From UHGV virus genome UHGV-0113858: DNA of 64,000 bases; one strand, written 5' to 3'. Both the position numbers and the translations under genes were made by a program. The stretch comes from a virus. The notes beneath the pieces were generated by a model. It was not told where the DNA came from. It did no database searches and saw nothing but the letters and a program-made list of their open reading frames with translations. Below are positions 34,099 through 53,462 of the stretch, piece after piece. How positions within the stretch are numbered: the stretch's first letter is position 1; each line of letters starts with the position of its first letter.

Positions 34099-35228
34099 AT
34101 AACCCCCACACGGCGTAACTCGCTTGAAAGGGTTGTCTTATCATTTGCAGAACGTTTCATGTAGACCATCTGGAAGATGATAGATGCCCACTGGCCTGCA
34201 CTCATTTTCCGTTGTGTGCCGTCCCACGAAGTAAACTCAACACCGTTCGGGAACCAGGTTTTATACTGGTTAATGATCGCTTGCCACATGGATTTCTCAT
34301 CCTGAAGGTGTCCGATCAGATTGAATGCCGCCGTATCACCGAAACGTCCAGCGATATCGAAACACTGGTAAGGCTTGATGTTATCTGAACTGTCACCGCA
34401 AAGCATCTGGTAACCGAAGAACTTACGCCCCCATCCCTTGACCTTACTACCTTCCATCCAGATCTCTCCCATCGAATCGTCGATCAACATAGGGATCGGG
34501 TGCTTCCATGTCTTCTCTTCTGAATCGCGCATAGTATCGAAGATAAGCCCAGGGTTTCCTTTCTGGTCTTTATCAAACGATGCCACGATGTAGTTGAACT
34601 TCCCGGTCTTCTGGTAATTCTCCCACCCCATATAAGCAAGAACAGACAGATAGTCATCTGCTTCAACACCATTGATCACCTTAGCGTTATACTTCCGGGT
34701 AACATAATCCCTTGTTTCCTGAAGAAGGAGTGGGCGTAATGTATCCTCACGATTACCCTTGTAACGCTCTGGAGCTGGGAGCATAAGGCGGAAGTTACCC
34801 TCACCACCAAGTACACCCATCCCTGTATTGCTTTCCATCTCAAGGTGTTCAAAGATAGCATTGATCTTTGTCTTCAGGATATGAAGGCAGTTTTCTACAG
34901 GTTCCGGTTCCTGAATGTCTTTAATCGTGAAGTCATCCCTACCCCACGGTACAAACACTCGGCCTTCGGCCTTTGCCTTCGCCTCCATGTTCATGTTTTG
35001 GTCTTTGATCCATCCACCGACAACTTTCTTTGTCGATCCCCAAAACTCAGTCCTGTTTTTGAAAATCTTTGTTCTTCCAGACTCAATGTGAGTGACCTCA
35101 ATTGTACGCTTTTCAGCACCAGCGGCTGATACAAAGCATGTCTGGTCGAGATCCAAAGCTAATACGCAGTCTTTTGTGACTTTATTTTTCCAATCTTTAT
35201 CATACGGATATCCCACTAGCCCTCTCAA
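34095..35228 (-). CDS. 5'-3' exonuclease / flap endonuclease (T4 RNase H / T5 D15 type)
   Basis: GVEADD motif and FEN-like acidic clusters. Confidence 0.65.
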   Translation of the reverse strand: MRGLVGYPYDKDWKNKVTKDCVLALDLDQTCFVSAAGAEKRTIEVTHIESGRTKIFKNRTEFWGSTKKVVGGWIKDQNMNMEAKAKAEGRVFVPWGRDDFTIKDIQEPEPVENCLHILKTKINAIFEHLEMESNTGMGVLGGEGNFRLMLPAPERYKGNREDTLRPLLLQETRDYVTRKYNAKVINGVEADDYLSVLAYMGWENYQKTGKFNYIVASFDKDQKGNPGLIFDTMRDSEEKTWKHPIPMLIDDSMGEIWMEGSKVKGWGRKFFGYQMLCGDSSDNIKPYQCFDIAGRFGDTAAFNLIGHLQDEKSMWQAIINQYKTWFPNGVEFTSWDGTQRKMSAGQWASIIFQMVYMKRSANDKTTLSSELRRVGVI

Positions 35229-35716
35229 TCTTTACTCAAATACTCGTCCAAATACCGGACATCCAATTCCCACTTTTCGCGCTTGCTTCGTTCATGATAC
35301 AAATCAAACGCTTCCTTAACATATTTCTCTGCCACAGGGCGACTAACTTCATTCACTCTCATAAAGTGACGAAGGGCAATTTCACCACGCCCACGGATCC
35401 CTGCCAAACCAATATGCTTGACTTCATGACAGGAAGGACATAGCGCGATTAGACCTATCAGAGTTATCTTACCGTCTCCGAAATTCCACTTCTCATGGCA
35501 TTCAACAGGGTGTTTTGTTCCTTTGCCCCCGCAGATTTCACATCGATAATTGGCCTTCGCATAACACTTCTTTCTGACAACATCCCACTGGGCTTTGGGG
35601 AGACGAGATCGGAGATTAGTAAACCACGCGGTCTTTGGAACTAGTTCAATCTCTAATTTCAAATCACCTCCACGTTGCAGCAACAACAATATCAATAGCT
35701 CGTTCCCAGCACTCAC
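35225..35716 (-). CDS. HNH endonuclease
   Basis: CEICGGKG...HPVECHEKWNF...CPSCHEVKH. Confidence 0.45.
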   Translation of the reverse strand: MSAGNELLILLLLQRGGDLKLEIELVPKTAWFTNLRSRLPKAQWDVVRKKCYAKANYRCEICGGKGTKHPVECHEKWNFGDGKITLIGLIALCPSCHEVKHIGLAGIRGRGEIALRHFMRVNEVSRPVAEKYVKEAFDLYHERSKREKWELDVRYLDEYLSKD

Positions 35717-36218
35717 CGAGAAGATTCAAACCACGCCAGTTGGTTGGGTCATCGATACGTGTGTCATATTCGTTTAATTTAACACCCCAGATGGCATCAT
35801 AAGGGGAGGCTTCCACAAACTTACGCCCAGCATCTCGATGCCCAAGAGCAGCTTCGAGAACAGATCTGTTGGCCTTCATTTTCAATACAAGACCTGAAGT
35901 CACTATATCCATTCTATTTTCTTCCCAGACGCTGTTGTCGAAACCTTTTACCTGACGACCAAGAGCTTTGGCCTCATTAGGGTTATCAACCGTAGCGATA
36001 CGGGAAGCAATTTCTTTGTCATCGAAGAGCATTGCCTTCTGGAACATCATGTAATGTTCTACAGTGAAAAACTCGTAACCACCACAACGAATAGGAATAA
36101 CTTGGCGGTAGTGATTACTGAACATATCCCGGTAAGTGAAGAAAAAGACGTATTTATCAGTTACTCGCATTATTCCCTCAATGAAATGTTTTCTTACTTG
36201 GACAAGAACCAGCGCCAT
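35664..36218 (-). CDS. NADAR (YbiA/DUF1768) domain protein
   Basis: FFFTYRDMFSN...EHYMMFQKA...EAKALGRQV...SPYDAIWGV...WRGLNLLGECW matches NADAR signature; likely start MRVTDKY. Confidence 0.55.
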   Translation of the reverse strand: MALVLVQVRKHFIEGIMRVTDKYVFFFTYRDMFSNHYRQVIPIRCGGYEFFTVEHYMMFQKAMLFDDKEIASRIATVDNPNEAKALGRQVKGFDNSVWEENRMDIVTSGLVLKMKANRSVLEAALGHRDAGRKFVEASPYDAIWGVKLNEYDTRIDDPTNWRGLNLLGECWERAIDIVVAATWR

Positions 36219-36372
36219 CTTTTGTTACAGTCTCTGTTCGATGACCGTCGCTGTAAACGCAGACCTTAGAGCTGCCGTTGGTATATTCATCAACCAAATC
36301 GAGAGTGTTTACAGTTGCGAATACCGGAGAAGAGAGCAGCAATGCTGCGATAAGAATTTTTGTGCGGATCAT
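36178..36372 (-). CDS. small secreted protein (64 aa)
   Basis: N-terminal signal peptide. Confidence 0.3.
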   Translation of the reverse strand: MIRTKILIAALLLSSPVFATVNTLDLVDEYTNGSSKVCVYSDGHRTETVTKDGAGSCPSKKTFH

Positions 36373-36434
36373 TGTGTATCTCCTTTTGTAAGTAGAGACC
36401 CGATGATACTAATCACCGGGCCTTTTGTCAACCT

Positions 36435-37325
36435 TTACTTACCTGCTGGCAGATTTACGAAAGGTACTGCACCGTTGCCACCCATAATGGTCGGGGTTTT
36501 ACCGTCCCACTTGTTGATCGCTTCCAGTTGCATGATTTCAGGGTTCTTACGGAGAGCATCACCACGCAGTTGGATGGATTCTGCTTCACCTTTTGCCAGA
36601 GCTACTTTAGCATCTGCCTGGCCCTGAGCTTGCAGTCGCTGGGATTCTGCTTCACCGCGAGCTGCTTCAATTTGTTTCTGAGCTTCAGCTTTAGTCTGCT
36701 GGATTTCGTTTTCACGCAGCAGCGCTTTCTGAGTCGCTTCGATCTTAGCGTTGATGGACGCAGTTACCTGAGGAGGATAACCAAGGTCATCAGTGTAAGA
36801 CAGTTTCACAATAATGATACCTACCGGATCAAGTTTCTGCTTCAGCGTCTTGGTCACTCGGTCCAGAAGCTGAGATTTACCATCACCAGCAAGTGTACCA
36901 ATATCCATCGTACCAGCTTCTTTGATCAGCGCATCAGAGATGTTCTGACGGATGTTGACATCGGTAATCTCTTGGACGCCTTTACGGTAGGTCTGGAAGA
37001 TCTTGGTAACCTTGGAGCGGTCAACGTAATACTCAACACCGATCTTTGCAGTAACCGTCATAGAATCTTTGGTCTGGAAGTTAAACGGTTGTTCGTAGTT
37101 GTTCAACTGGTTAAACGTCGGGAACTGATAGATCTCTTCGTTCCAGGTTAACCAATACTTACCAACGCCCACTTCTTGCTGCTGAACGCCTTTCTCATCA
37201 CCATACAGGTCAACCTTAACACCCACATAACCCGCCGGAACAGTTGCACGTTCACAACCAGTCAGACCAATTGCACCCAGGGCGATCAGTCCAGCAAATA
37301 CTACGCGTTTGATATTCTTAAGCAT
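36435..37325 (-). CDS. SPFH/band-7 (HflK/HflC-like) lipoprotein
   Basis: lipobox LTGC, SPFH core and Ala/Glu/Gln-rich coiled-coil tail. Confidence 0.7.
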   Translation of the reverse strand: MLKNIKRVVFAGLIALGAIGLTGCERATVPAGYVGVKVDLYGDEKGVQQQEVGVGKYWLTWNEEIYQFPTFNQLNNYEQPFNFQTKDSMTVTAKIGVEYYVDRSKVTKIFQTYRKGVQEITDVNIRQNISDALIKEAGTMDIGTLAGDGKSQLLDRVTKTLKQKLDPVGIIIVKLSYTDDLGYPPQVTASINAKIEATQKALLRENEIQQTKAEAQKQIEAARGEAESQRLQAQGQADAKVALAKGEAESIQLRGDALRKNPEIMQLEAINKWDGKTPTIMGGNGAVPFVNLPAGK

Positions 37326-37486
37326 CAGTTTGTTTCTCCTCTTTGATTTTATACTCAGTCTTTACGTTTTCATCAACGTGGTCATCTACGATTTTTGCAA
37401 CATAAGATGCCGCAGACTTACCTTTGGACTTTGCCAAGTGCTGCAACTTTTCCCAAGTTGCCGCCTTCAAATTTAGCAACATTATC
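37322..37486 (-). CDS. small ribbon-helix-helix-like protein (54 aa, below ORF-track cutoff)
   Basis: GGAGGAG RBS; MLLNLKAATWEKLQHLAKSKGKSAASYVAKIV fits the RHH strand-helix pattern. Confidence 0.3.
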
Positions 37487-37682
37487 GATCTCCTCCAGCG
37501 CTTGTCTTCGGAATGAAGACCTTACGCAACCAGTACCACACGACAACCGGGGCGGTGAAGACTAAGGCAAACCCGCCAATAACACTGATTGTATCTTTGG
37601 CAGAAACCAGAGTTGGGACACCAAACCCGAATACGACGCAGATGAAGACAAATAGGCCAACACCATTAAGGTAGTATTTCAT
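37482..37682 (-). CDS. small membrane protein (66 aa)
   Basis: two TM helices. Confidence 0.35.
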   Translation of the reverse strand: MKYYLNGVGLFVFICVVFGFGVPTLVSAKDTISVIGGFALVFTAPVVVWYWLRKVFIPKTSAGGDR

Positions 37683-38041
37683 TATTCAGTGTCCTCAGCT
37701 CCATCATCGGCTTCAGTCTGTGCAACATTGGGTGTTCCACGACCAAACAGAATATCTGCCTCGGTGAAGACTTCTTTTTCAGCCTCTAATGCAGCAGTTT
37801 TCTTTTCGGCTTCGAAGCGAACATCATACTCGCGCTTCACCAAACTATTGAAGAATTTTGGAGAGATATTATGCGTTTCTTTCTCCACAGAGCGAATATC
37901 TTTGATCTGGTCTTTCAGATCAGCGATTTGACGCTGGAGATCAACCACTTCAGTTACGCTATCTTTCAGGCGTTTACGTTGAACCGGGTCAGACGGCAGA
38001 GAGGTGATCAGTTCGATTTTGATTTTTGGCATACGTGGCAT
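37682..38041 (-). CDS. hypothetical coiled-coil protein (119 aa)
   Basis: ORF. Confidence 0.4.
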   Translation of the reverse strand: MPRMPKIKIELITSLPSDPVQRKRLKDSVTEVVDLQRQIADLKDQIKDIRSVEKETHNISPKFFNSLVKREYDVRFEAEKKTAALEAEKEVFTEADILFGRGTPNVAQTEADDGAEDTE

Positions 38042-38103
38042 ATATTGCTCCTTTGTTTGGTTTAGTGTGGTCAGTATAACCGTTCAGTTTTATTTGTCAA
38101 GCT

Positions 38104-38388
38104 TCAATTGTCAATGCCGACAATTTTTCCGCCCATTCTCTCGATCTGGTTGACATGAGATACCAGTGTGCCGAGTGTGCATTCATAAGCGTATTTCTTT
38201 ACGCCACCCCAACGACGCTTCATCGTGAAGCGGATAACATGACGGGAAGATGCCCCGCGATTCATGATGGTCATTTTAAGGCGTTTAGCCAAGGCACCAA
38301 TTTCAGAATAATCAATATTTTCTTCCACTTCGTTCTCCTTTTGTCTTGATGGGGTAATTATACAGACCCCGATACGATTGTCAAACAA
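38104..38388 (-). CDS. hypothetical protein (94 aa)
   Basis: ORF. Confidence 0.35.
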   Translation of the reverse strand: MFDNRIGVCIITPSRQKENEVEENIDYSEIGALAKRLKMTIMNRGASSRHVIRFTMKRRWGGVKKYAYECTLGTLVSHVNQIERMGGKIVGIDN

Positions 38389-39052
38389 TAATGTTTGGTT
38401 TTTTGAAAGTCCCTGGCTTCATGATTTTACCGCCTTTGTCGAAGAATACTACGCGGTCTTCCTGGCCCAAAACACCTTTAACAATACTGAAGTGAACACC
38501 TTCATAACGACCCTTGTTACGCTCCTCAATACAAGCACATTCTGCCTCAAGTGCCTCTACCAAGTCAAGATCTTTATGCAAAGACCGGACTTCGATCACA
38601 GTTGGGTATTTAGAATCGTTAGACTCAAGAACGCTACTCATGTTCTTATCCAATTGCATATCAAGACTAAACAGAAGAGCCGTGCTCAGTTTGAGCATTT
38701 CTTCATAATCTTCATTCGCAAAAGCATCAAAAGCTTTACCAGGAGAAAACTTAAGATCAGGATTATAGGTTAAGGATAGCGAATAGTTATTACTCATACT
38801 CAACCAATAAGCATACGACGCCACAACAAACAAGTCACACGCTCCATCAACAACTTCCTTACGGTCATTTTCGATTAATGCTGTAACGGTTTCTTGTAAC
38901 TCCTCTCCTACAAACTCCCACTGCTTTTCCAATGGGGTAAATTCACCCTTTGCAGAGGCTGCGATAGAATTCCAATCTACAACATGTTTCGCATACTTAA
39001 CAAGAGAGGTTGGGCGCAGCATAGCATTCAGAGTATCATAAGCTTCTTTCAT
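38381..39052 (-). CDS. possible MazG-like all-alpha NTP pyrophosphohydrolase
   Basis: WEFVGEELQETVTAL...EVVDGACDLFVV resembles the MazG EExxE/D motif; weak. Confidence 0.3.
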   Translation of the reverse strand: MKEAYDTLNAMLRPTSLVKYAKHVVDWNSIAASAKGEFTPLEKQWEFVGEELQETVTALIENDRKEVVDGACDLFVVASYAYWLSMSNNYSLSLTYNPDLKFSPGKAFDAFANEDYEEMLKLSTALLFSLDMQLDKNMSSVLESNDSKYPTVIEVRSLHKDLDLVEALEAECACIEERNKGRYEGVHFSIVKGVLGQEDRVVFFDKGGKIMKPGTFKKPNIIV

Positions 39053-39060
39053 TAAGTCTC

Positions 39061-39339
39061 CTAAATTGTTTTTTCAAAAACACCATCGATGGCGTATTTA
39101 ATTTTTTCCCAAGTTTCTTTGTCGAAACCTACCATACCACGCTGCTCATAGCCTTGGCGAGAACGGTTGTCATAATGAGCTAACTCATTATAAGAAAGAT
39201 TAACTGAACCGGGTAGGTCAGGATCTGGACGAATTGACCATCTATAGTTGTCGTTCATCGCAGAATCGTAGATATGCGCTTCAAAATCTACAGTATTTTC
39301 TTTAATTTGATGCATCACTATCTCCTTGCGGTTGATCAC
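39061..39339 (-). CDS. hypothetical protein (92 aa)
   Basis: ORF. Confidence 0.35.
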   Translation of the reverse strand: MINRKEIVMHQIKENTVDFEAHIYDSAMNDNYRWSIRPDPDLPGSVNLSYNELAHYDNRSRQGYEQRGMVGFDKETWEKIKYAIDGVFEKTI

Positions 39340-39652
39340 GACTGATACCTAAAGGTAGCCATGCCCCTGTCTTGCTTTTATACAGGCAGGTTGATTTGTA
39401 CCATGAATAACTGGTCTCTGTATTCGCGGCCCAGCCGTCGAACTGACAAGTCATAGTATGCCATAATGGGACAGTAAGGGCCAGCGTAACAAGGCCCATA
39501 ACAAATACCCAGATGATCAGCAGACGTTTAACCTTTCCAGCAACCCAGTCAAAGAAATCATCCAGCTTATCTTTTCGGAATCTGTAAGCGGCATAAATGC
39601 CGCCTCCTGTTACAAATGATGCGCCTAGTAGCGCTAGCCAATACCAGATCAT
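39302..39652 (-). CDS. membrane protein (116 aa)
   Basis: TM helices. Confidence 0.35.
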   Translation of the reverse strand: MIWYWLALLGASFVTGGGIYAAYRFRKDKLDDFFDWVAGKVKRLLIIWVFVMGLVTLALTVPLWHTMTCQFDGWAANTETSYSWYKSTCLYKSKTGAWLPLGISRDQPQGDSDASN

Positions 39653-39653
39653 T

Positions 39654-40133
39654 TTACTGTGCCTTTGTTACGATAATTTGAGTATCAGGGCGCACAGGGA
39701 TTTGGGAACCATCACCGAGAGTCAGGATAACATCCTCCCCCATCGCACCAGTATTCGTTACGGTATAAACCTTTCCGCAAAACATGATCTCATCACCCTT
39801 ACGGATTGCTTTAGCTGGGTAGTTCCCAGGTTCCCGATCAGTGTCTTCCAGCGGGTCATATGTTGCATGGAAAATTTCTGATTTGCAAGGATAGAATTCT
39901 CCAGCCACCCCTTTAATTACATAATCCCCAGCAGAGGCTACAACCACACCCTCTGGGGTTTTTATCTCTACAGTACGACCACAATCACGCGTGTGGATTT
40001 CGGAATCCTTCCACACACCAGTTTCCATCCAATTATGGATCTGCCCTGCGCTGGTTGACGACCCGTCAAACTTATGTGCTTCAACCTCTACAGGTTTTTT
40101 ACGATAAAATCCCATTAGTATACAGGCTCCCAT
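39654..40133 (-). CDS. hypothetical protein (159 aa)
   Basis: ORF. Confidence 0.4.
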   Translation of the reverse strand: MGACILMGFYRKKPVEVEAHKFDGSSTSAGQIHNWMETGVWKDSEIHTRDCGRTVEIKTPEGVVVASAGDYVIKGVAGEFYPCKSEIFHATYDPLEDTDREPGNYPAKAIRKGDEIMFCGKVYTVTNTGAMGEDVILTLGDGSQIPVRPDTQIIVTKAQ

Positions 40134-41419
40134 GTTAATGTATCGAGTTCACGAACGCTTTGGCCCACAGGGAACTGAGGAACACCATCATCAGTTCTAG
40201 CCTGGAACGTGAAGTTAATAAACTTATCCACCAGCAGGAGCATTCTTTCCTGAGATCGCTCTGCGTGGGTTCCCTTCATTTTACAGTTGAAACGTGTACC
40301 ATCTTTCTCTTCACAAAGAAGGACACCCTCACCGTTCTTATCTTCCACAGAATCAAGGACTTTAGCCTCACCATCTTGGAACAATTTCCATTTTAGAAGG
40401 TCTGATGAACGCTGTCCAAATTCATACAGGCCTTTGTAGTTTCGAATGATAATACCCTCGAAACCACTCTGCATGTAATGTCCAATAAAACTCTTGACCA
40501 GAAGCTCGTTGTTCACAAACTCGCCAGTAAGAGTTTTTACCAGGGGGATGTCCAGTTCACACTCAACAGCTTCCTGCACAGTGTACAGATCTGCAAGGCG
40601 ACACTGTTCTGGTTCATCTGGATCGTGCCACGGGCGTCCTGCGTTTACAGGGATATCGAAGATATGATATTCAAGATCAAGGCTTGAATAACCACCATAA
40701 CGATCAACATCTTTAACGGGTTCAATTGCGACGGAATAAACCTCACCATCATGATCTTTCCAGCTTTCTTCTCCGTTGTCAACAGCTTTCTGATGACGCT
40801 TCAGGTCTGACTGATAATCCTTTTCAATCTCTTCTTGAATCTGCTCTGGTGTACGCCACTTCTTAGCAAGAGCGACAATCTTTTGCAGACTCAGGCCATG
40901 AATGTACAGCTCCCCATCGAATTTGTCAAACCCTGAATGCTCAGAAAGGGATTTAACCTGTTCAGACAACTCAGAATCAAGCGGTACAGGATACAGTTTG
41001 TTACCACGGCTATTGAATTGTGGGAAGCCATCTGCATCAAGAGTAACCAGAGCACGTACACCATCGAGCTTTGGCTGCACGTATGCAGGATAAACTATTG
41101 ATTTTGAACGTTTAGTTGCATCATGGGCCAGCATTGGGGAGAAGTTCTCTTCCTGCTCAAGCTTGCTTGTATCGTCACGATATCCAAGGCGAACCTGTTT
41201 CTCCCATTTGGAAACCGCCTCAGCCAATGCCTGCTGTTCTGCGGTGGTTTCGTTAGAACGTCCAACGTTCTTCGGTTCACAGGTGGTAACCTTTTGTTGC
41301 TTCTTACCACCAACCTTGCCAAACTCTACAACTACCTGATTACCAGAAATAAACACCTTCCAACACTGGAAAGAACCATCTTTATTAAGGGCGTACAGTG
41401 TACTGTTTACTTGTTGCAT
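40115..41419 (-). CDS. ATP-dependent DNA ligase
   Basis: motif I KLDGVRAL and downstream NTase/OB motifs. Confidence 0.8.
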   Translation of the reverse strand: MQQVNSTLYALNKDGSFQCWKVFISGNQVVVEFGKVGGKKQQKVTTCEPKNVGRSNETTAEQQALAEAVSKWEKQVRLGYRDDTSKLEQEENFSPMLAHDATKRSKSIVYPAYVQPKLDGVRALVTLDADGFPQFNSRGNKLYPVPLDSELSEQVKSLSEHSGFDKFDGELYIHGLSLQKIVALAKKWRTPEQIQEEIEKDYQSDLKRHQKAVDNGEESWKDHDGEVYSVAIEPVKDVDRYGGYSSLDLEYHIFDIPVNAGRPWHDPDEPEQCRLADLYTVQEAVECELDIPLVKTLTGEFVNNELLVKSFIGHYMQSGFEGIIIRNYKGLYEFGQRSSDLLKWKLFQDGEAKVLDSVEDKNGEGVLLCEEKDGTRFNCKMKGTHAERSQERMLLLVDKFINFTFQARTDDGVPQFPVGQSVRELDTLTWEPVY

Positions 41420-42195
41420 TATTTCTCCTTGCTTTGCAATGGTGTCTTACCTTCAAGGTGATTCTCAACTATCTTGATAAGGCCGGGATTATTAAAGGCA
41501 TCAACAGCTCCGGTACGATATACAAGAACACCCGCATTCTCATACATCATTTGTTCATCATACCTAATAGCAGGATTAACAACAACAACTTTTGTCCCCC
41601 GCATAACCGCAGGGAACAACTCCCAGTTGAAGTTAATAACTGTATTTGAACAGCCTACAACAATTACAAGATCCTGATTTGTCAATGACTCCAAGGTATC
41701 ATTCATAGGGCCATAGGCCGGAGCATTCTCACCAAAGAAAACTACGTTTGGTTTACACCAATGAAATTGGTCGGGGTCTACCTCATCGTAACCGATGTCA
41801 ACCAACTGCTCTTCAGAATCTTCATGGAGCTTGTATCGAATTTCTTTCAGATACCCGTGGATGTAAAGAGTATCTTCTTTAGGGACACCCGCACGTTCCA
41901 GAAGGTCATCAACGTTAGTTGTCATGTTAACAACCTGCCCAGGATAACGTCTGTACCACTCAGCCACGCGAAGATGCGCCGCATTCGGATGTACCGTTGG
42001 TAACTCTGCACGACGCTTGTTATAAAACATGTGCGTTTTATGGTAGAAGTTACCACGGAAGGCGTGTATGTTACAAACCTCCTCAAGGTCGTATTCATCC
42101 CACAGGGCTTTACCAGATTCAGTATCTGTGCGGAATGTACGTACACCACTCTCCGCAGAGAAGCCAGCACCACTTATAACGATAAGACGTCTCAT
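41419..42195 (-). CDS. Sir2-family NAD-dependent deacylase / ADP-ribosyltransferase homologue
   Basis: GAGFSAESGVRTFR, VVFFGE, VVGCS Sir2 motifs. Confidence 0.65.
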   Translation of the reverse strand: MRRLIVISGAGFSAESGVRTFRTDTESGKALWDEYDLEEVCNIHAFRGNFYHKTHMFYNKRRAELPTVHPNAAHLRVAEWYRRYPGQVVNMTTNVDDLLERAGVPKEDTLYIHGYLKEIRYKLHEDSEEQLVDIGYDEVDPDQFHWCKPNVVFFGENAPAYGPMNDTLESLTNQDLVIVVGCSNTVINFNWELFPAVMRGTKVVVVNPAIRYDEQMMYENAGVLVYRTGAVDAFNNPGLIKIVENHLEGKTPLQSKEK

Positions 42196-42416
42196 GGATT
42201 TTCCCCTATAACATTATTTATCTCATTCATAGCCTCATTATAACCATTGCACCGCTCGGTAATACCTTTCATATAACGAATTTTATTAAGAACTCGTAAA
42301 TTTGAAAACTTCCAGGCTTCCCATGCAGCAGATTTTGCTTCTGGTGTTGACCAAGGATCGCTAAGAGAGTCCCACCAATTTTCGAACGATTCCCGTAGGT
42401 TATTTCCTTTATACAT
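42192..42416 (-). CDS. hypothetical protein (74 aa)
   Basis: ORF. Confidence 0.35.
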   Translation of the reverse strand: MYKGNNLRESFENWWDSLSDPWSTPEAKSAAWEAWKFSNLRVLNKIRYMKGITERCNGYNEAMNEINNVIGENP

Positions 42417-42424
42417 ATCTTTCC

Positions 42425-42829
42425 TTACTGTAATTTCAATGAGTTACGCAGACGAAGCTCTTGAGCATCACGAGTTTCCTGCGGAACATTGTGAATAGAA
42501 TCATTACCATGCCTATTCTCGACCACCAAGCTAATAACTTGGTATCCGTGCTCATCAGCAAGGGCAATGTAGGGTTTTAGTTCCTTCTCTGTTGTCGAAG
42601 TGTTGGATACGATAATTTTTGCAATACGGCACACCATAGCCTCACGTACCTGTTCTTGACACCACTTATGAGCAACAGCCATGTTTTCAGGCTTCCAGTC
42701 GTAAACCCCGTCCCGATAATGGTATTTATCGGCCTCAAATACAGGCCATGCTTTACCAGCGATTGTTTCAGCAACTGTAGACTTACCAGCACCAGACACG
42801 CCGCGTAAGATAATCAGAATCTTTTCCAT
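42425..42829 (-). CDS. P-loop polynucleotide 5'-kinase-like protein (Pnk kinase-domain type)
   Basis: GVSGAGKST Walker A then ADKYHYRDG, paralleling T4 Pnk GCPGSGKST...RDDYRQS. Confidence 0.45.
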   Translation of the reverse strand: MEKILIILRGVSGAGKSTVAETIAGKAWPVFEADKYHYRDGVYDWKPENMAVAHKWCQEQVREAMVCRIAKIIVSNTSTTEKELKPYIALADEHGYQVISLVVENRHGNDSIHNVPQETRDAQELRLRNSLKLQ

Positions 42830-42838
42830 CTCTTCTCC

Positions 42839-43183
42839 TCAGTAATTGTTTCTTAAGATCGTAATACGATACTTCGAGAAGCTCTCTTTTGCAAGCATGA
42901 ACTTTTGTGCCGCAGAAGGGTTAGACGTATGGACATAGAGTTTAGCATCATGCACAGGAAGTTTTCCATACACAAGCTTCTCTTCCAAGGCCAACAGGCA
43001 GTCATAGCCCTCCATTTCTGACCCTTCCCCAAGGTCATTATCGAAATGCCACTCTGTGACATAACGATAGAACTTTGACCTGTTGTCCAGAAAGTCCATA
43101 AATTTCTGAGAGGTCTTGAACCACAAGGCATCAGGATACCCGTAGTCTTTTGGATCTCTCAGGTCATCAAGCCAGATAATCAT
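42839..43183 (-). CDS. hypothetical protein with receiver(CheY)-like acidic pocket pattern
   Basis: MIIWLDDLRDP ... HFDNDLG ... VHTS ... K. Confidence 0.25.
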   Translation of the reverse strand: MIIWLDDLRDPKDYGYPDALWFKTSQKFMDFLDNRSKFYRYVTEWHFDNDLGEGSEMEGYDCLLALEEKLVYGKLPVHDAKLYVHTSNPSAAQKFMLAKESFSKYRITILRNNY

Positions 43184-44142
43184 TTTGGAACCCCAACATA
43201 AAAACGACTACCACGATCAAACATGTCTTCGATAGCGAAGTAATCTTCAACAACCTGACGTCGTTTTTGAGAATCCATCGCGGACCAAACATCTTTAGAG
43301 TAATACTCACGAATATGGTCTAGCAACTCGTAATACTCTTCGTCAATACGCTTCTTGGCCTCTTTCGGGTTATCCCAGATCATATCCCACTTGTTATCAC
43401 CTCCACGCATCAGGAATTTCTTCGCCAGGTAATGTGGGGACTTGATTTTCAAAAGTAGTTCGCTATTTTCGTCATCTGTCCCGATATTTCGGACAACAAA
43501 ACCTTCGTGGCTAACAGCATGACTGGCTGCAACGACATCGCCAAATGCACGGACATCCCATTGAGGACGTTTTGCACCGATCACTTCAGCGATGCGATCA
43601 AGTTTGTGCTCTTCAACCATAACACCGTTTAAAGCGAGGTCACGGACACCAATCAGATAAGCACCTTCTTTCTCTTCCACAATATGTGGGTCGCTGCTAT
43701 CGCATATTTCGAAAATGAAAGTGTAATCTTCACGGAAAGAAATCAGATCAAAATTCATTTTTTCGAGGTACTTACGAGCCAATTCTGAAAACTCAGAATC
43801 CAATGTCCCTGTTGTTGAAACGAGAAGCTTGTCTTTGTGTATTGCCGCTGTAGCCATAAAACCATTGACCTTGCGGGAACAAATAACCGGTTTGTCAAGA
43901 GGAAGGTCAGTTCCATTCTCGAAGCGGTTGAAAATCTTAGTGAAAGGCCAGATAATCACGTTGTCTTCTGAATCAACAACCATGCCACGGCACTCAAGCA
44001 GGCGTGGATCAGTATGCCACAGGTTATCCCAGAACACATTGTTCTTATACTTCAGCACAGACAGACCTGCGAACGGGCCTTCGGTGTAAGTCTTTTTGGT
44101 TACCAGTTTTTTAGCGACCAAATCGTCTACGTTGAATTTCAT
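43180..44142 (-). CDS. ATP-dependent nucleic acid ligase-like nucleotidyltransferase, probable RNA ligase
   Basis: motif I SRKVNGF (K-x-N-G) followed by LLVSTTG, reminiscent of T4 Rnl1 KEDGSLVST. Confidence 0.4.
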   Translation of the reverse strand: MKFNVDDLVAKKLVTKKTYTEGPFAGLSVLKYKNNVFWDNLWHTDPRLLECRGMVVDSEDNVIIWPFTKIFNRFENGTDLPLDKPVICSRKVNGFMATAAIHKDKLLVSTTGTLDSEFSELARKYLEKMNFDLISFREDYTFIFEICDSSDPHIVEEKEGAYLIGVRDLALNGVMVEEHKLDRIAEVIGAKRPQWDVRAFGDVVAASHAVSHEGFVVRNIGTDDENSELLLKIKSPHYLAKKFLMRGGDNKWDMIWDNPKEAKKRIDEEYYELLDHIREYYSKDVWSAMDSQKRRQVVEDYFAIEDMFDRGSRFYVGVPK

Positions 44143-44308
44143 GTTCTCTCCTTCGTCTGAGATTTTTCAATAGTTTGAGCACTTCTTTTTGTGCTGATTT
44201 CATTTCACTGTAGTCATCATAGATGCTCAGGTCTAGTTCGTCAACATATTCTTCAAGCTCGCTAATCAAAAAGGCCACGTTATGGATAAGATCAAGATCT
44301 TTTTTCAT
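44111..44308 (-). CDS. hypothetical protein (65 aa)
   Basis: ORF. Confidence 0.3.
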   Translation of the reverse strand: MKKDLDLIHNVAFLISELEEYVDELDLSIYDDYSEMKSAQKEVLKLLKNLRRRREHEIQRRRFGR

Positions 44309-44648
44309 AACCTTCCGCCTGATAATATGTTGTATTATAAGGGGTTTCGATACTGAAGCTTATCTGGCACATCTCCTGAGCAAGATATTTTCCAAGTTCG
44401 ACAGCCATTGATAATATCTCATGCTCCTGACGCTGAAAACGTGGATACTGCATCAACCGCACAGTCATACCATCTTCGACACCACCTGTGTAAACATAGA
44501 TGCATGGAGCAATCTGCACACAAGCACCTTGCATAACCCAATGGCGACACAAATTCTTGGCCTGAGCATAATCCCCGGCAATGTGAATAGTAGCGAAGAA
44601 AGACTTCGCCGTGTTACGTGCTATGAAATTTCGTTCTTTGTTATGCAT
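44292..44648 (-). CDS. hypothetical protein (118 aa)
   Basis: ORF. Confidence 0.35.
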   Translation of the reverse strand: MHNKERNFIARNTAKSFFATIHIAGDYAQAKNLCRHWVMQGACVQIAPCIYVYTGGVEDGMTVRLMQYPRFQRQEHEILSMAVELGKYLAQEMCQISFSIETPYNTTYYQAEGYEKRS

Positions 44649-44649
44649 C

Positions 44650-45246
44650 TTATTCTCCGTGGTCAGCAGTGTAGATTGGTTTTTTGAGGCACATCAGGAC
44701 GGCCTCACGCATCGTCAGAGGACGACCATGAACATCCCAACCTACATCGAGAATACGTCCACCGGGGGCTGTATAGGAGCCGTGGCTATGCCCGTGCAAC
44801 ATAACTGACCCGTGGTGCGCTTTGTTCCACGATGCGAACGGATAGTGAGACATACACACATGCACCTTATCTTTTCCAGTGCTGAAGTTAATCTCTTTAT
44901 AATCAACGACTTCATGACCGAATTCACGGAAGATACGTTTCGTATCTCTGTTGTCATGGTTACCACCAACCAGAATGATCTTTCCGTTGATCTTTTCAAG
45001 GATGTCACGAACGCGAGGCTCCATGTAACGTCCGTAAGCAATCACGAAGTCACCAAGGTGCGCTACGACATCATCTGGTTTAACGTGCTTATTCCAGATT
45101 TCAATCATACCTTCATTCATTGCATACAGACTTTCACGGTCTTCTTTTGGACCGTACAGGTTCTTACGGAATTTATCACACGATGGGAAACCAAGGATGT
45201 TGGTATGATGCCACCAATGCGTGTCTGACGTGACGTGGTCGATCAT
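44650..45246 (-). CDS. calcineurin-like metallophosphoesterase (Ser/Thr phosphatase or 2',3' phosphoesterase type)
   Basis: GD...GNHD...GHSH metallophosphatase motifs. Confidence 0.65.
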   Translation of the reverse strand: MIDHVTSDTHWWHHTNILGFPSCDKFRKNLYGPKEDRESLYAMNEGMIEIWNKHVKPDDVVAHLGDFVIAYGRYMEPRVRDILEKINGKIILVGGNHDNRDTKRIFREFGHEVVDYKEINFSTGKDKVHVCMSHYPFASWNKAHHGSVMLHGHSHGSYTAPGGRILDVGWDVHGRPLTMREAVLMCLKKPIYTADHGE

Positions 45247-47725: not shown

Positions 47726-48526
47726 ATGAGTTTAGAACTTCGTCTGAACAAACTGGTAGTTCCTGTCGATCACTTTACGTTCAAAGGTGGTGAAGAACAG
47801 GTTAGAATCGATATGGCGCATACTCCGAAAGGTGGTATTGGTTTCGTTGATATCACTGCTAAAATCAAGAATTCCACCGATGTCATGGCGTTAGCTATGT
47901 TGGTGGATGCATGTTCTCGTCTGGAAGGACTGCATAACCATGCTGAGTTTACCCTGCATCTGCCATACATCCCGTATGCACGTCAGGACCGTGTGATGAA
48001 TCCGGGTGAAGCGTTATCCATCAAAGTTTTCGCAAATATCGTCAACTCTCTTGGGTTTGACAAGATCATTGTCGATGATCCGCACAGCGATGTCTCCGCC
48101 GCGTTGCTTAACAACGTTAAAATCCGTGGTCAGGACGCTCTTATTGCGGAATTCCATGAAGGTCTTGCCGGAAAAGATGTTGTTATCGTTGCCCCTGACG
48201 CCGGAGCACGTAAAAAAGCTCAGAAAGTTTCCGATCGACTTCGCCTTCCTCTGGTGGAAGCTGGAAAAGTGCGCGACCTGAAGACAAATGAAATTACCGG
48301 GACTGCTGTTTTCGGTGATGTTGAAGGACGTGAGTGTGTTATTGTCGATGATATCTGCGATGGTGGTCGCACATTCATCGCCCTGGCACAAGCATTGAAG
48401 GCAAAAGGAGCAAAACGTGTTATTCTTTACGTAACTCACGGTATCTTTTCCTTCGGTAAAGAAGTTATCTACGAAGGCGGCGTTGATGAAATCTACGCGT
48501 ACCACGACTGGACCGAAAACTTTTAA
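47726..48526 (+). CDS. prs: ribose-phosphate pyrophosphokinase (PRPP synthetase)
   Basis: PYIPYARQDR and VDDICDGGRT PRPP-binding motifs; GAGGAG RBS before ATG 47726 (ORF track starts at TTG 47711). Confidence 0.8.
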   Translation: MSLELRLNKLVVPVDHFTFKGGEEQVRIDMAHTPKGGIGFVDITAKIKNSTDVMALAMLVDACSRLEGLHNHAEFTLHLPYIPYARQDRVMNPGEALSIKVFANIVNSLGFDKIIVDDPHSDVSAALLNNVKIRGQDALIAEFHEGLAGKDVVIVAPDAGARKKAQKVSDRLRLPLVEAGKVRDLKTNEITGTAVFGDVEGRECVIVDDICDGGRTFIALAQALKAKGAKRVILYVTHGIFSFGKEVIYEGGVDEIYAYHDWTENF

Positions 48527-48587: not shown

Positions 48588-50273
48588 ATGCTTAATCAAG
48601 AAAGTCCTATCCTGTTCGCTGACTTTTACAAACCTTCACACATCTCCATGTATGATAAACGTTCTGAAATTGTTCAGGATAACATGACCCCTCGTAATGC
48701 GAAGCACTTCATCCACTTCGCTGATAACGACCAGCGTGTCATGTTTGCTGGCCTTCAGGGATTTATTAAGTGGTTCCTTATCGACATGTTCAACAATAAC
48801 TTCTTCAACCTCCCGAAAGAAGAAGCGGTTGCTGATTATCGTGAGGTTTGCGACTCCAGCATTGGCATTGGCATGGTAGAAACCTGGGGCTTTGAGGCTC
48901 TTCATGATCTCGGTTATCTTCCTCTGGAAATCCGTGCTCTTCCAGAAGGAACGCTTTCTCCGGTTCAGGTCCCAATGTTTACAATCCAGAATACGCACCC
49001 GGATTTTTACTGGTTGCCTAACTTCCTGGAAAGTGTGATCTCCGCAGAAACCTGGAAAACTATCACAACTGCAACGACGTTCTGGCAGTATCGCAAGCTG
49101 TCTGAAAAATGGGCTGCTGAGACCTGTGATAACAACGACCATGTTGCATTCCAGAACCACTGCTTCGCCTATCGCGGTGAAGCTGGTACTCACGACGCAG
49201 CACAGAGCGAATTTGGTCAACTGATCAACTCTATGGGTACAGACACTATCCCAGCGATTCTGTATGCTCGCCGTTATTACAACATGAAAGGTAAGTTCGT
49301 TGCTGGTTCTATTCCTGCATCTGAACACTCTGTTGCAACCACGAACATCGGTTTCATTGTTGGTCGTTTACAAGGTGAAAACCCGGACCTGACTCTGGAC
49401 GAAGCACGTTTCTTGGCTGAAGTTGAATTCATGAAACGCTACATTACGGAAATTTTCCCTAAAGGTTTTGTTTCCTACGTGGCAGACAGTTATGACTTCT
49501 GGGCGATTATCACCAAAGCAGCAGCGATCCTGAAACAGGACATCATGGCCCGTGATGGTCGTGTTGTTTTCCGTCCTGACTCCGGCATTCCTGAACATAT
49601 CATTGCAGGCTATCGTAGCCTCGGTGAGTTTGATGACTGGTCTGATGCACACTCAGCACTACAGGAAGATTCAAATTCAGAAGTTGCCAAGATTGAAGGT
49701 AAATACTACCGGATTCTTGTTGACGATGAAGATAATGCCTACTTCGACTTCCAACCTTCAGGTCTTGAAGAGCATGAAGTTAAGGGTGCAATTCAGTGTA
49801 TGTGGGAAATCTTTGGTGGTGAAGTTAACTCCAAGGGTTACAAAGTTCTGGACAGTCATGTAGGTCTGATCTATGGTGATTCCATCACTGTTGCTCGTGC
49901 AAAAGACATCTTTGAACGTCTGAAAGATAAAGGCTTTGCATCCAGCAATATCGTGTACGGTGTTGGTTCCTTTACCACCCAGTACACAACCCGTGATTCA
50001 CTGGGTATGGCTGTGAAAGCAACTGGCGCTGTGATTGATGGTCAGCAGATCATGGTTGTCAAAGAGCCTAAGACTGACCTCGGTAAGAAATCTGCGAAAG
50101 GTTTCCTCAAAGTTGTTCGCAACATGTTCGGTCAGTTAGAACTGATTGACAATTGTCAGCTTGAAGATGTACAGTCTGACGATAACGAACTGCGTCGTGT
50201 GTTCTACAACGGTAAACTTATTGTCGATGAAGATCTTACAACGATTCGTGAACGCGCAGCCGCTCAACTGTAA
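48588..50273 (+). CDS. nadV: nicotinamide phosphoribosyltransferase (NadV-type NAMPT)
   Basis: 561-aa NAPRTase/NAMPT-family protein; AAGGAG RBS. Confidence 0.75.
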   Translation: MLNQESPILFADFYKPSHISMYDKRSEIVQDNMTPRNAKHFIHFADNDQRVMFAGLQGFIKWFLIDMFNNNFFNLPKEEAVADYREVCDSSIGIGMVETWGFEALHDLGYLPLEIRALPEGTLSPVQVPMFTIQNTHPDFYWLPNFLESVISAETWKTITTATTFWQYRKLSEKWAAETCDNNDHVAFQNHCFAYRGEAGTHDAAQSEFGQLINSMGTDTIPAILYARRYYNMKGKFVAGSIPASEHSVATTNIGFIVGRLQGENPDLTLDEARFLAEVEFMKRYITEIFPKGFVSYVADSYDFWAIITKAAAILKQDIMARDGRVVFRPDSGIPEHIIAGYRSLGEFDDWSDAHSALQEDSNSEVAKIEGKYYRILVDDEDNAYFDFQPSGLEEHEVKGAIQCMWEIFGGEVNSKGYKVLDSHVGLIYGDSITVARAKDIFERLKDKGFASSNIVYGVGSFTTQYTTRDSLGMAVKATGAVIDGQQIMVVKEPKTDLGKKSAKGFLKVVRNMFGQLELIDNCQLEDVQSDDNELRRVFYNGKLIVDEDLTTIRERAAAQL

Positions 50274-51656: not shown

Positions 51657-51729
51657 CGTTCAGTAGCTCAGTTGGTAGAGCAGGTTCTTCATACGGACAA
51701 GGTCAGTGGTTCAATTCCACTCTGAACGA
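51657..51729 (+). tRNA. tRNA with CAT anticodon (Met or lysidine-Ile); G27-A43 mismatch
   Basis: hand-folded cloverleaf: acceptor CGTTCAG/CTGAACG, D GCTC/GAGC, loop TTCATAC, T AGTGG-TTCAATT-CCACT. Confidence 0.55.
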
Positions 51730-51732
51730 TAA

Positions 51733-51810
51733 GGCCCTCAAGCTCATTAGGTATGAGCAATCGACTCATAATCGAGAGGTAGGCAGGTTCGAATCCTCCG
51801 GGGGCCACCA
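51733..51810 (+). tRNA. tRNA with CAT anticodon (second copy), encoded CCA
   Basis: acceptor GGCCCTC/GGGGGCC, anticodon loop CTCATAA, T loop TTCGAAT. Confidence 0.6.
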
Positions 51811-51820
51811 ATTAAAAATG

Positions 51821-51849
51821 TTGACGAGGATATCTGATTGAGTTAGTAT
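51821..51849 (+). promoter_or_regulatory. sigma70-like promoter TTGACG-17-TAGTAT overlapped by inverted repeat GAGGATA/TATCCTC
   Basis: upstream of a basic-protein gene with strong RBS. Confidence 0.5.
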
Positions 51850-51902
51850 CCTCATGAACATAAACGGGACAAATTCCCAAATAAAATGCAAAGGAGAAAA
51901 TT

Positions 51903-52214
51903 ATGACTAAGAAAAATACTGCTAAGAAAGTATCCGCCATCGATGCTATCAAACAGCCTTTCCAGTTTGAGTCGAAGTCTACTCAGACTCATTCTGCGCC
52001 GCACGATGTGCGTCTCGGTGGTGTAGAGAAAACCGTATCAGTTTTCGATCGCCGTAAAGGCGAGTATAAATCCGAAACCCGGATTGAAGGTGGTCAGATT
52101 ATCTCTGCTTCTTACCGCATCCGCACAGGCAAGACCAAGCGTGAACGTGCTGGTAAGGTAAAGGAAACTAAGGTTGTTGAAACCGTAGCCCCGAAGAGTA
52201 AAAAGAAAAAATAA
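51903..52214 (+). CDS. small lysine-rich basic protein (103 aa), possibly nucleic-acid binding
   Basis: AAAGGAGA RBS; K/R-rich termini. Confidence 0.45.
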   Translation: MTKKNTAKKVSAIDAIKQPFQFESKSTQTHSAPHDVRLGGVEKTVSVFDRRKGEYKSETRIEGGQIISASYRIRTGKTKRERAGKVKETKVVETVAPKSKKKK

Positions 52215-52275
52215 TTTCTCCGGCATGGAGAATGACGATTCCGTGAAACGTCTTTAAAAACACGGGTATGTTTTC

Positions 52276-52351
52276 GGGGTATTAACACAGCGGTTAGTGT
52301 AGCGGCCTCTTAAGCCGAAGGTCGAAGGTTCGAATCCTTCATGCCCCACCA
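52276..52351 (+). tRNA. tRNA-Lys (CTT), encoded CCA
   Basis: acceptor GGGGTAT/ATGCCCC, anticodon loop CTCTTAA, T GAAGG-TTCGAAT-CCTTC. Confidence 0.65.
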
Positions 52352-52479
52352 AGTTTGAAATGAGGGAGATACGGGTTCGACTCCCGTTCTTGCTGGCCCG
52401 GCTCGCGTAGTGGCACAGGGCGATAGCTTAAATGGACGAAAGTGCTCTCGTTTCAAATCTAAACCAAAAGGAGAACGAA

Positions 52480-52668
52480 ATGTTCGGATCCCTGTTACGT
52501 ATGGCTGGCGATATTGTTGGTACTGCTGTTGTTGTCACGGCAACTGTTGCAGAACCTTTTGTAGATGTAGCCGCAGAAGTTCTTGACGCCGCTGATGAGA
52601 TTATCGTATCACCTACCGCAGACGTCGTTGGTGAAGTTTGTGACTCCATTAAGGACGTTGTACGATGA
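52480..52668 (+). CDS. hypothetical protein (62 aa)
   Basis: AAAGGAGA RBS before internal ATG of ORF 52432. Confidence 0.35.
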   Translation: MFGSLLRMAGDIVGTAVVVTATVAEPFVDVAAEVLDAADEIIVSPTADVVGEVCDSIKDVVR

Positions 52669-52802
52669 GTGGCGGTGTTATCTTTATCATCATGTCAGTG
52701 ATCTCTTTCCTGCTTGTTCTTTGGTATTATTGGTCATGGTTTGAAAACAACCCTACCACCGAAGAAATAATCAAAGATTCGCTTGACAAACACAATCTGT
52801 AA
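52665..52802 (+). CDS. small membrane peptide (45 aa)
   Basis: ATGA overlap, single TM helix. Confidence 0.3.
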   Translation: MSGGVIFIIMSVISFLLVLWYYWSWFENNPTTEEIIKDSLDKHNL

Positions 52803-52842
52803 GTGTAGTATTTAAACCTAATTTAACGCAAAGGAGAACTTA

Positions 52843-53454: not shown

Positions 53455-53462
53455 TGCGTAGT

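Follow-up and report, generated by a model that had tools for sequence, protein, structure and literature searches.

Candidate functions of a NADAR-domain protein and a class III sirtuin encoded in the early-type gene block of a Klebsiella Mydovirus

Introduction

What do a NADAR-domain protein and a Sir2-family protein contribute to a phage that also carries genes linked to nicotinamide adenine dinucleotide (NAD+), and do these genes belong to one system? The question is raised by a stretch of 64,000 nucleotides from the UHGV virus genome UHGV-0113858 (the window, that is, this whole stretch at its full length). An earlier note made from its letters had placed both genes in a leftward early block and had combined them with a 'Prs/NAMPT' pair into one unusual NAD+/ADP-ribose toolkit. 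Bases 35000-43000 show 97-98% nucleotide identity to the Klebsiella phages KpS11, KpS8, Seu621 and KB57, with phage relatives from Salmonella, Escherichia and Cronobacter matching more weakly. KB57 belongs, per its classification, to the genus Mydovirus of the Vequintavirinae, and by sequence comparison the window is a genome segment of a Klebsiella Mydovirus of this subfamily.

The best explanation overall is probably that NADAR and Sir2 are separate, lineage-conserved accessory modules and not one system. The arrangement itself is already known, with RefSeq-annotated genes, a tested anti-DarTG1 role for NADAR proteins of the AdfN type, a published NAD+ reconstitution pathway, NARP1, and a sirtuin neighborhood that was interpreted in 2022. 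What remains is the question for the substrate of a widespread phage sirtuin, found in 991 of 50,697 phage records that include the model phages T5 and rV5, whose active site is intact and whose links to RNA end repair are recurrent. Once it is decided whether this sirtuin deacylates proteins or works on RNA, the use to which large lytic phages put their rebuilt NAD+ would become clearer.

A stand-alone NADAR protein

Both open reading frames were found on the minus strand at the coordinates proposed for them, and their products are 99-100% identical to RefSeq-annotated proteins. At the orthologous positions KB57 carries KB57_119, labeled 'NADAR family protein', and KB57_107, labeled 'Sir2 (NAD-dependent deacetylase)'. 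The assignment of the first frame to the NADAR family holds, with a Pfam match to PF08719 of 120.4 bits (cut-off 35.1, E 1.2e-34), and only its start had to be corrected. The listed frame (35664-36218, 184 amino acids) begins within an upstream gene for a protein of 64 residues. The ATG at position 36170 has a GAGGG Shine-Dalgarno sequence 6 nucleotides upstream, is located 7 nucleotides past the stop of that 64-residue gene, and is the very ATG used as the RefSeq start of KB57_119. As ribosome-binding site, preceding stop and RefSeq start agree, the gene extends from 35664 to 36170 and encodes 168 amino acids. The coordinates given for Sir2, 41419-42195, stand unchanged.

Among solved structures the best match of the NADAR protein is PDB 8BAU (E 2.2e-15), with E. 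coli YbiA (PDB 2B3W, E 2e-4) in second place. We take 8BAU to be the NADAR protein of Phytophthora nicotianae (PnNADAR), as its residue numbering fits the description by Schuller et al., in which E43, K50 and E125 of PnNADAR are mechanistically relevant and K75 is nearby. Their equivalents in the NADAR of E. coli C7, E88, K95, D171/E173 and K115, were shown to be important by mutagenesis in the same study. In the window protein, residues E38, K45, K68 and E120 align with E43, K50, K75 and E125 of PnNADAR, and together with D125 from a DAIWG motif they are kept in 99-100% of 118 homologues as well as in the protein of phage Bas61. The residue in the last strand is a glutamate, as in YbiA and PnNADAR, and neither the aspartate of DarT1-linked NADAR proteins nor the histidine of T4 gp30.3. 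The hallmarks of the DarT1-linked DarG1 type (BC4488), an aspartate two residues before the last-strand glutamate (D171 in the C7 protein) and an N-terminal extension, are absent from what is a bare domain of 168 residues with the sequence F118-V119-E120 at this position. Fold and catalytic residues of the protein are thus intact, and its activity can be predicted by analogy from homologues that were tested.

The closest of these is AdfN-Bas60, a distinct NADAR protein of the BASEL phages Bas60-62 (Johannesman et al. 2025, PMC11825919). It neutralizes DarT1 in uninfected E. coli and brings three DarTG1-sensitive phages back to full titer, is without effect on the thymidine-specific DarT2, and was placed in a bacterial clade that is neither of the YbiA nor of the DarG1 type (PMC11825919). 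We made the comparison with bas61_0107 of Bas61, annotated as a 'YbiA-like N-glycosidase', which represents the NADAR type common to Bas60-62, and found 40% identity over the full length (E 4e-37). Like AdfN-Bas60, the window protein is a stand-alone domain without a linked DarT gene (168 versus 183 amino acids) and has both the E/K/K/E catalytic set and a VEASPYD motif. The two differ in their genomic neighborhood, and an identity of only 40% separates them, so that the function of the window protein is assigned by analogy; they also differ in their hosts, Bas61 being a Justusliebigvirus of E. coli and the window stemming from a Klebsiella Mydovirus. Note that in the Bas61 genome (positions 6875-9090 of the locus analyzed) a macrodomain protein, a phosphoribosyltransferase and a HAD-like protein adjoin each other, another ADP-ribose-related trio that is unrelated to the arrangement in the window.

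With good confidence we therefore propose the protein to be a stand-alone orphan antitoxin of the AdfN type, a DNA guanine de-ADP-ribosylase that would remove DarT1-type ADP-ribose from guanines in single-stranded phage DNA, and the link to DarT drawn in the earlier note gains support from the published experiments on its 40%-identical, AdfN-Bas60-type homologue (PMC11825919). The enzyme would hydrolyze the N-glycosidic bond between ADP-ribose and N2 of guanine, as placed on single-stranded phage DNA by DarT1-type toxins. Free ADP-ribose would be released, and phage replication could proceed. No ADP-ribosyltransferase is annotated adjoining the gene in the window or in its RefSeq relatives, where the neighbors are an HNH endonuclease and the 64-residue, lipoprotein-like gene.

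Three points weigh against this assignment. The identity to the tested AdfN protein is only moderate, the last-strand residue is of the glutamate type and not the aspartate of DarT1-linked NADAR proteins, and a NADAR protein that de-ADP-ribosylates in vitro does not necessarily protect cells, as DarT1 toxicity in uninfected cells was rescued by neither E. coli YbiA nor T4 gp30.3. It is conceivable, if rather improbable, that DNA is not the substrate in vivo and that the protein clears ADP-ribose derivatives in solution (immune signals or by-products of RNA repair, for instance) or, in the manner of YbiA, reactive riboflavin intermediates. The last-strand glutamate is indeed that of the YbiA-type subfamily, and some records label NADAR homologues as 'GTP cyclohydrolase II' or 'ribA/ribD-fused' proteins. 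PnNADAR and YbiA share with the window protein their sequence fold family, the glutamate in the last strand and equivalents of E43, K50 and E125. Both are cellular proteins, however, and YbiA is an N-glycosidase for riboflavin intermediates that gives no protection from DarT1 in cells. It also speaks against this alternative that PnNADAR, with the same glutamate-type active site, does hydrolyze guanine-ADP-ribose, that the 40%-identical protein of the AdfN-Bas60 type rescues both DarT1 toxicity and phage growth, and that AdfN-Bas60 falls outside the YbiA clade (PMC11825919). These favor the role of the window protein as a DNA guanine de-ADP-ribosylase.

NADAR homologues are present in 719 of the 50,697 phage records. 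Within the subfamily the gene is found in genomes of the Mydovirus and PVP-SE1 types; in rV5 and Henunavirus, distances of up to 12 kb and 8 kb from Sir2, respectively, did not yield it. Such a patchy presence is typical of an anti-defense gene.

A class III sirtuin without a zinc site

The second assignment is likewise supported, by matches of the Sir2 protein to Pfam PF02146 (84.4 bits, cut-off 24, E 1.3e-23) and to the 'Sir2' family PHROG 2162 (1.8e-109). Among solved structures, the closest in sequence is that of E. coli CobB (1s5p, 5.6e-21), with Sir2Af1, Sir2Af2 and SIRT5 next. Conservation was assessed over 120 homologues with 54-100% identity, and all of the following motifs are conserved in at least 98% of these and invariant in an aligned subset of 42 sequences. 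The NAD+-binding loop GAGxSxxSG..FR is formed by residues 9-22, GAGFSAESGVRTFR, the (T/Q)N(I/V)D motif by T93-N94-V95-D96, and the catalytic H113 aligns with H147 of CobB. The pair Y58-x-x-R61, which serves the recognition of acidic acyl groups in class III sirtuins, aligns with Y92 and R95 of CobB, and in the FFGE motif the two phenylalanines and the glutamate are kept. The catalytic residues on which the earlier note had let its assignments depend are consequently all present, E38, K45, K68 and E120 in NADAR, and H113, N94, D96 and the GAGxSxxSG..FR loop in Sir2.

An AlphaFold2 model of the protein (predicted local distance difference test, pLDDT, 90.9; predicted template modeling score, pTM, 0.88) was compared with the PDB using Foldseek, and the top 50 matches are deacylase sirtuins throughout: CobB, with a template modeling (TM) score of 0.85 on the target, Sir2Af1 and Sir2Af2, enzymes of the Sir2Tm type, and SIRT5. 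Not one Sir2 NADase from a defense system is among these 50 matches. The protein has a single domain, its neighbors are a 74-residue protein, a kinase and a DNA ligase, and no sensor partner of the SLOG, HerA, Argonaute, TIR or large-sensor kind is fused to it or adjoins it. We therefore rejected a resemblance to the effector NADases ThsA, DSR, Sir2-HerA and pAgo-Sir2, and the relation to defense effectors that had been brought up for this protein is not borne out, the best matches in sequence and fold being CobB, Sir2Af1 and SIRT5.

One discrepancy to CobB is the absence of the four-cysteine zinc ribbon. Residues 114-152 contain a single cysteine, and the positions of the CobB cysteines are occupied by Y, F, W and C, with the region still modeled by AlphaFold2 as a confident beta module. 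For a comparison with cellular relatives, 185,579 species genomes were scanned by a motif-based procedure and the 80 best-scoring bacterial and archaeal loci among the matches listed were considered. These nearest cellular sirtuins are ordinary class III enzymes with 33-42% identity to the phage protein. The YxxR pair is found in 79 of the 80, and 49 have one cysteine or none in the zinc module and share the 'DIGY...RP(H/N)IV' pattern there. The loss of the zinc site is thus no phage-specific oddity. The same holds for the loop GTSxxVYPAA, which is replaced by GCSNTVINFNW in the phage protein: GTSGQVINVAW stands at this place in relatives from the Campylobacterales in which the zinc ribbon is retained.

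By its motifs and its model, the protein is an ordinary zinc-free class III sirtuin that resembles CobB and SIRT5, with which it shares the fold (TM scores of 0.75-0.85), the GAGxSxxSG..FR loop, the N, D and H residues, the YxxR pair and the FGE loop. It differs from both in an identity of 28-29%, in the missing zinc cysteines, a trait of many Bacteroidota relatives as well, and in some 50 extra residues at the C-terminus; CobB further has an alanine, A76, at the pocket position taken by the invariant Cys41 of the phage protein. The protein is 60% identical to T5.102 of phage T5, a 'putative Sir2-like protein' from PHROG 2162, the clade that Iyer et al. 2022 called RNA-repair sirtuins. As no cellular relative above approximately 42% identity was found among the best 80 of the matches listed, the phage clade looks virus-restricted.

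What the sirtuin may act on

Motifs and fold mark the protein as a catalytically competent, NAD+-cleaving transferase. Its reaction would cleave NAD+ to nicotinamide and move the ADP-ribose onto an oxygen nucleophile of the substrate. We tentatively favor a reaction in which acyl groups, probably acidic ones, are taken off protein lysines at the expense of NAD+, as all features of sequence and fold are those of deacylases of the CobB/SIRT5 type. Its targets are probably to be sought in the machinery for repair and ligation, or the substrates of this machinery, since the gene is coupled to that of a DNA ligase and is located near an RNA ligase and an end-repair cassette. The stop codon of a 74-residue gene overlaps the start of sir2 (ATGA), and the stop of sir2 in turn overlaps the start of the DNA ligase gene directly downstream (TAATG), such that the three are translationally coupled. 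The NADAR gene follows on the same strand approximately 4 kb further downstream. In 13 of 60 loci from IMG/VR the order Sir2 to DNA ligase recurs, with the ligase centered 1-2.5 kb downstream, and in two more loci a ligase match is found about 7 kb off.

Upstream of Sir2 follow a P-loop kinase, a cyclic-phosphate-processing receiver domain protein (cREC), an Rnl1-type RNA ligase and, two genes on, a phosphoesterase; a MazG-like protein is encoded downstream. Kinase, cREC, Rnl1, p118 and phosphoesterase (42425-45246, minus strand) are recognizable as a split cassette for the repair of tRNA or RNA ends. Such a neighborhood was described by Iyer, Burroughs, Anantharaman and Aravind in 2022 as the 'type 2' sirtuin context of phage V5 and phage Mydo, for which a KptA-like role in RNA repair was predicted. 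The partners named were a T4-like RNA ligase, cREC, a nucleotide kinase, MazG and a calcineurin-like phosphoesterase, and all five were identified within 3.2 kb of Sir2 in the window. The cassette is kept near Sir2 in rV5, and likewise in metagenomic relatives with sirtuins of only 51-56% identity. In rV5 a cREC orthologue with 61% identity adjoins Sir2, the phosphoesterase upstream of Rnl1 is kept in relatives, and in Henunavirus the cassette is retained with the exception of cREC, which was not detected.

The association of sirtuin and RNA end processing also recurs with genes of different families. An HAD_SAK_2 phosphatase, annotated as a 'Swiss-army-knife RNA repair' enzyme, is found 0.6-1.2 kb from Sir2 in all 28 T5-like loci that have it, and in Erwinia phage KEY it adjoins Sir2 in a different gene order. 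T5-like phages pair their sirtuin with this phosphatase and with DUF7415 proteins instead of cREC, Rnl1 and kinase. A Nudt16-like Nudix protein is encoded next to Sir2 in the jumbo phage G17 (Asteriusvirus). In the distant contig L073, RlaP, a Band_7 protein, two unassigned genes, NAMPT and Sir2 stand in series, with RlaP approximately 4.4 kb upstream of Sir2. These neighborhoods do not extend to all carriers, as in the IMG/VR contig L070 (146 kb) none of Rnl1, kinase, cREC and phosphoesterase was detected up to 8 kb from Sir2, and Justusliebigvirus (Bas61) and KVP40-like phages have a sirtuin without neighbors from RNA repair.

The recurrent link of Sir2 to genes for RNA-end processing, with cREC, Rnl1 and kinase here, HAD_SAK_2 in T5-like phages, the Nudt16-like Nudix protein in Asteriusvirus and RlaP in L073, weighs against protein deacylation and in favor of a role on nucleic acids. 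Following Iyer et al. 2022, the protein could then be an RNA-repair enzyme and a functional analogue of KptA/Tpt1, catalyzing an NAD+-dependent removal of 2'-phosphates or an ADP-ribosylation of RNA ends, an alternative that we regard as doubtful but worth serious attention. The ends in question would arise when anticodon nucleases of the host cut tRNA, to be healed and sealed by the cREC, kinase and Rnl1 cassette. The neighborhoods that these authors named for V5 and Mydo are identical to the one in the window, and our own calls for its members (cREC_REC at 4.2e-17, Rnl1, kinase and phosphoesterase) reproduce theirs and are conserved near Sir2 in relatives. The different companions in the T5-like loci and phage KEY, in G17 and in L073 point the same way, the window further holds RlaP, a CCA-adding enzyme and 21 tRNAs, and annotations of the phage list no homologue of KptA. 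Like KptA/Tpt1, Sir2 is a consumer of NAD+ near genes for RNA ligase, kinase and cyclic-phosphate processing, although this is a functional analogy only (Iyer et al. 2022): KptA/Tpt1 has the fold of the ADP-ribosyltransferase superfamily, whereas Sir2 has the Rossmann fold of sirtuins and would act on RNA by analogy.

Several observations speak against an RNA substrate. Sequence and fold are those of lysine deacylases, with the features of the acyl pocket retained (Y58/R61, FGE, V95 and V151). We know of no sirtuin that acts on RNA. The contig L070 combines Sir2, DNA ligase, NARP1 and NADAR with no cassette detected within 8 kb, and Bas61 and KVP40-like phages likewise carry their sirtuin without such neighbors. 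Moreover, a metallophosphoesterase could strip the phosphate by itself, leaving no need for a 2'-phosphotransferase. In a literature search we found no experimental study of any phage sirtuin, nor a test of the RNA-repair prediction by Iyer et al. On balance the removal of acyl groups from proteins is retained as the tentative assignment. Extended to the entire phage clade (PHROG 2162 with T5.102, rV5, Mydo and the window), the competing idea would make these sirtuins nucleic-acid enzymes that spend NAD+ on removing or ADP-ribosylating a phosphate at broken or re-ligated tRNA ends, or that service the co-translated ligases. In such an enzyme the YxxR pair might conceivably bind an RNA phosphate. 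We consider this a possible, albeit speculative generalization; if true, no sirtuin before it would have had RNA as its substrate, and the repair of tRNA by which phages counter anticodon nucleases of the host would gain a new step.

A further explanation, which we consider unlikely, would see Sir2 as an enzyme for host takeover or anti-defense that ADP-ribosylates or deacylates a host protein or degrades an NAD-derived immune signal, its position among repair genes reflecting mere synteny of the early block. The gene does belong to an early-type leftward block with many small uncharacterized genes, and some sirtuins are protein ADP-ribosyltransferases (literature cited via Iyer et al. 2022). 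Its location directly after a NAMPT homologue in L073, and approximately 5.5 kb from NARP1 in the window, would fit a high demand for NAD+. Nevertheless, no macrodomain partner is encoded beside Sir2, the protein has no extra domain, no Sir2 of the defense type appears among its top 50 fold matches, and RNA-repair genes adjoin Sir2 repeatedly, in gene orders that are unrelated.

NARP1 and the relation of the modules

At approximately 5 kb distance and on the other strand, RefSeq labels for KB57 list a 'ribose-phosphate pyrophosphokinase' and a 'nicotinamide phosphoribosyl transferase', corresponding to the 'Prs/NAMPT' of the earlier note. This label had to be abandoned. Phage operons so annotated do not encode phosphoribosyl pyrophosphate synthetase and NAMPT (Osterman et al. 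2024). Instead, Adps pyrophosphorylates ADP-ribose and Namat joins nicotinamide to the product, and as NARP1 the two enzymes rebuild NAD+ after the action of host NADase defenses (Osterman et al. 2024). The KB57 and KpS8 orthologues appear as an 'Adps-associated' pair in the supplementary tables of that study, and the window genes at 47726-48526 and 48588-50273, which lie outside the coordinates flagged earlier, are accordingly identified as NARP1 (Adps and Namat). As in the published system the genes adjoin, with 98% and 89% identity to the KB57 pair. Homologues of Namat or Nampt are present in 2048 of the 50,697 phage records. NMNAT and PnuC, listed under the match in the annotation of one relative, were not seen in the RefSeq relatives, and we set them aside as the OY-series records look mis-registered, one of them listing rII genes at this place.

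The block of NARP1, phosphoesterase, Rnl1, cREC, kinase, Sir2, DNA ligase, MazG, Band_7 and NADAR is conserved across genomes of the Mydovirus and Seunavirus types and their metagenomic relatives. In view of this lineage conservation, and of the frequency of NADAR, Sir2 and Namat/Nampt homologues in phage records given above, the set cannot be called unusual. On paper the substrates and products of the three modules (nicotinamide, ADP-ribose and NAD+) interlock: host NADases produce ADP-ribose and nicotinamide, Sir2 and NADAR would do so as well, and NARP1 would turn both compounds back into NAD+. The modules may thus complement each other metabolically, but such recycling of NAD+ among them is only a deduction from their predicted reactions.

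That NADAR, Sir2 and 'Prs/NAMPT' form a single integrated and unusual toolkit is in our view very improbable, even with all three located within approximately 15 kb and found together no more than 8 kb from Sir2 in six loci from IMG/VR (L017, L018, L020, L021, L050 and L070). They are on different strands or have about ten unrelated genes between them, and some relatives with Sir2, whether or not they also have NARP1, lack NADAR. T5-like phages have a sirtuin with neither NARP1 nor NADAR detected within 8 kb of it, each module has a published explanation of its own, and the context of Sir2 points to the repair of RNA and DNA ends (Iyer et al. 2022).

Gene organization and additional observations

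The features discussed are compiled in Table 1. In a phmmer search against the PDB, the Rnl1-like ligase and the kinase remained without a match, and the phosphoesterase gave a weak match only (1xm7).

Table 1. Positions and supporting matches of the genes considered in the window.
Feature	Coordinates	Strand	Basis
NADAR-domain protein, 168 aa (amino acids)	35664..36170	-	Pfam NADAR PF08719; start refixed to 36170
MazG-like nucleotide pyrophosphohydrolase	38381..39052	-	Pfam PRA-PH 4.8e-5; PHROG 671
ATP-dependent DNA ligase	40115..41419	-	Pfam DNA_ligase_A_M and OB_2
Class III CobB/SIRT5-like sirtuin without zinc site, 258 aa	41419..42195	-	Pfam SIR2 PF02146
74-aa protein	42192..42416	-	PHROG 343 (labeled unknown function); no Pfam match
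P-loop kinase resembling polynucleotide kinase, 134 aa	42425..42829	-	AAA_33 1.8e-10; PHROG 2071; PHROG 505 'polynucleotide kinase' 3.2e-9; GVSGAGKST P-loop
cREC (cyclic-phosphate-processing receiver domain), 114 aa	42839..43183	-	Pfam cREC_REC PF20274 4.2e-17
T4 Rnl1-type RNA ligase, 320 aa	43180..44142	-	RNA_lig_T4_1 PF09511 2.9e-13; PHROG 562 1.6e-65; KVNG read by eye as motif I
p118, 118-aa protein	44292..44648	-	between Rnl1 and phosphoesterase
Calcineurin-type metallophosphoesterase, 198 aa	44650..45246	-	PHROG 547 'phosphoesterase' 3e-48; DxH, GD and GNHD motifs
Adps (usually annotated 'Prs'), predicted ADP-ribose pyrophosphokinase, NARP1 enzyme 1	47726..48526	+	98% identical to KB57 protein
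Namat (usually annotated 'NAMPT'), predicted nicotinamide ADP-ribose transferase, NARP1 enzyme 2	48588..50273	+	89% identical to KB57 protein, 99.8% to that of phage Mydo

Relative to KB57 the region is mosaic. Protein identities drop to 88% for MazG, 86% for DNA ligase, 88% for p118 and 89% for Namat, with flanking genes at 97-100%. Namat shares 99.8% identity with its counterpart in the Proteus phage Mydo, and the relative L016 has a DNA ligase with 100% identity. At the other end of the region, an HNH endonuclease gene (35225-35662, minus strand) abuts the stop of the NADAR gene; a mechanically called frame with a GTG start that extends to 35716 would overlap NADAR, and the RefSeq form of the endonuclease is shorter, with 145 amino acids. 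Several close relatives match only from window position 35239 on, which hints at a variable junction there.

An SPFH/Band_7 lipoprotein (36435-37325, minus strand) is encoded between the MazG and NADAR genes in all relatives of the Mydovirus type, and a Band_7 protein is also found near NAMPT and Sir2 in L073 (positions 3592-4710 of this 120-kb viral contig). A protein of 159 amino acids (39654-40133, minus strand) has a weak PGDYG match (E 0.006) and hits eleven PHROG families labeled as of unknown function, matches that suggest a widespread small domain, often fused to pyrophosphohydrolases.

Further genes for RNA maintenance are located elsewhere in the window. The region 12089-16468 holds a nucleotidyltransferase of the RlaP family for an 'RNA repair pathway' (12089-13162, minus strand, E 3.4e-15), a 163-residue 'hydrolase' (13545-14036, minus strand) with a sub-threshold match to the peptidyl-tRNA hydrolase PTH2 (E 0.008), a DUF7205 protein, and the CCA-adding enzyme with an HD domain (15221-16468, minus strand). 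The 21 tRNA genes form a cluster on the plus strand (51657-59045) that includes two tRNA-Lys (CTT and TTT) and a tRNA-Tyr, and a tRNA-like gene at 54660-54734 received an aberrant call with a two-base anticodon. Together, tRNA cluster and repair cassette suggest a heavy investment against host defenses that target tRNA.

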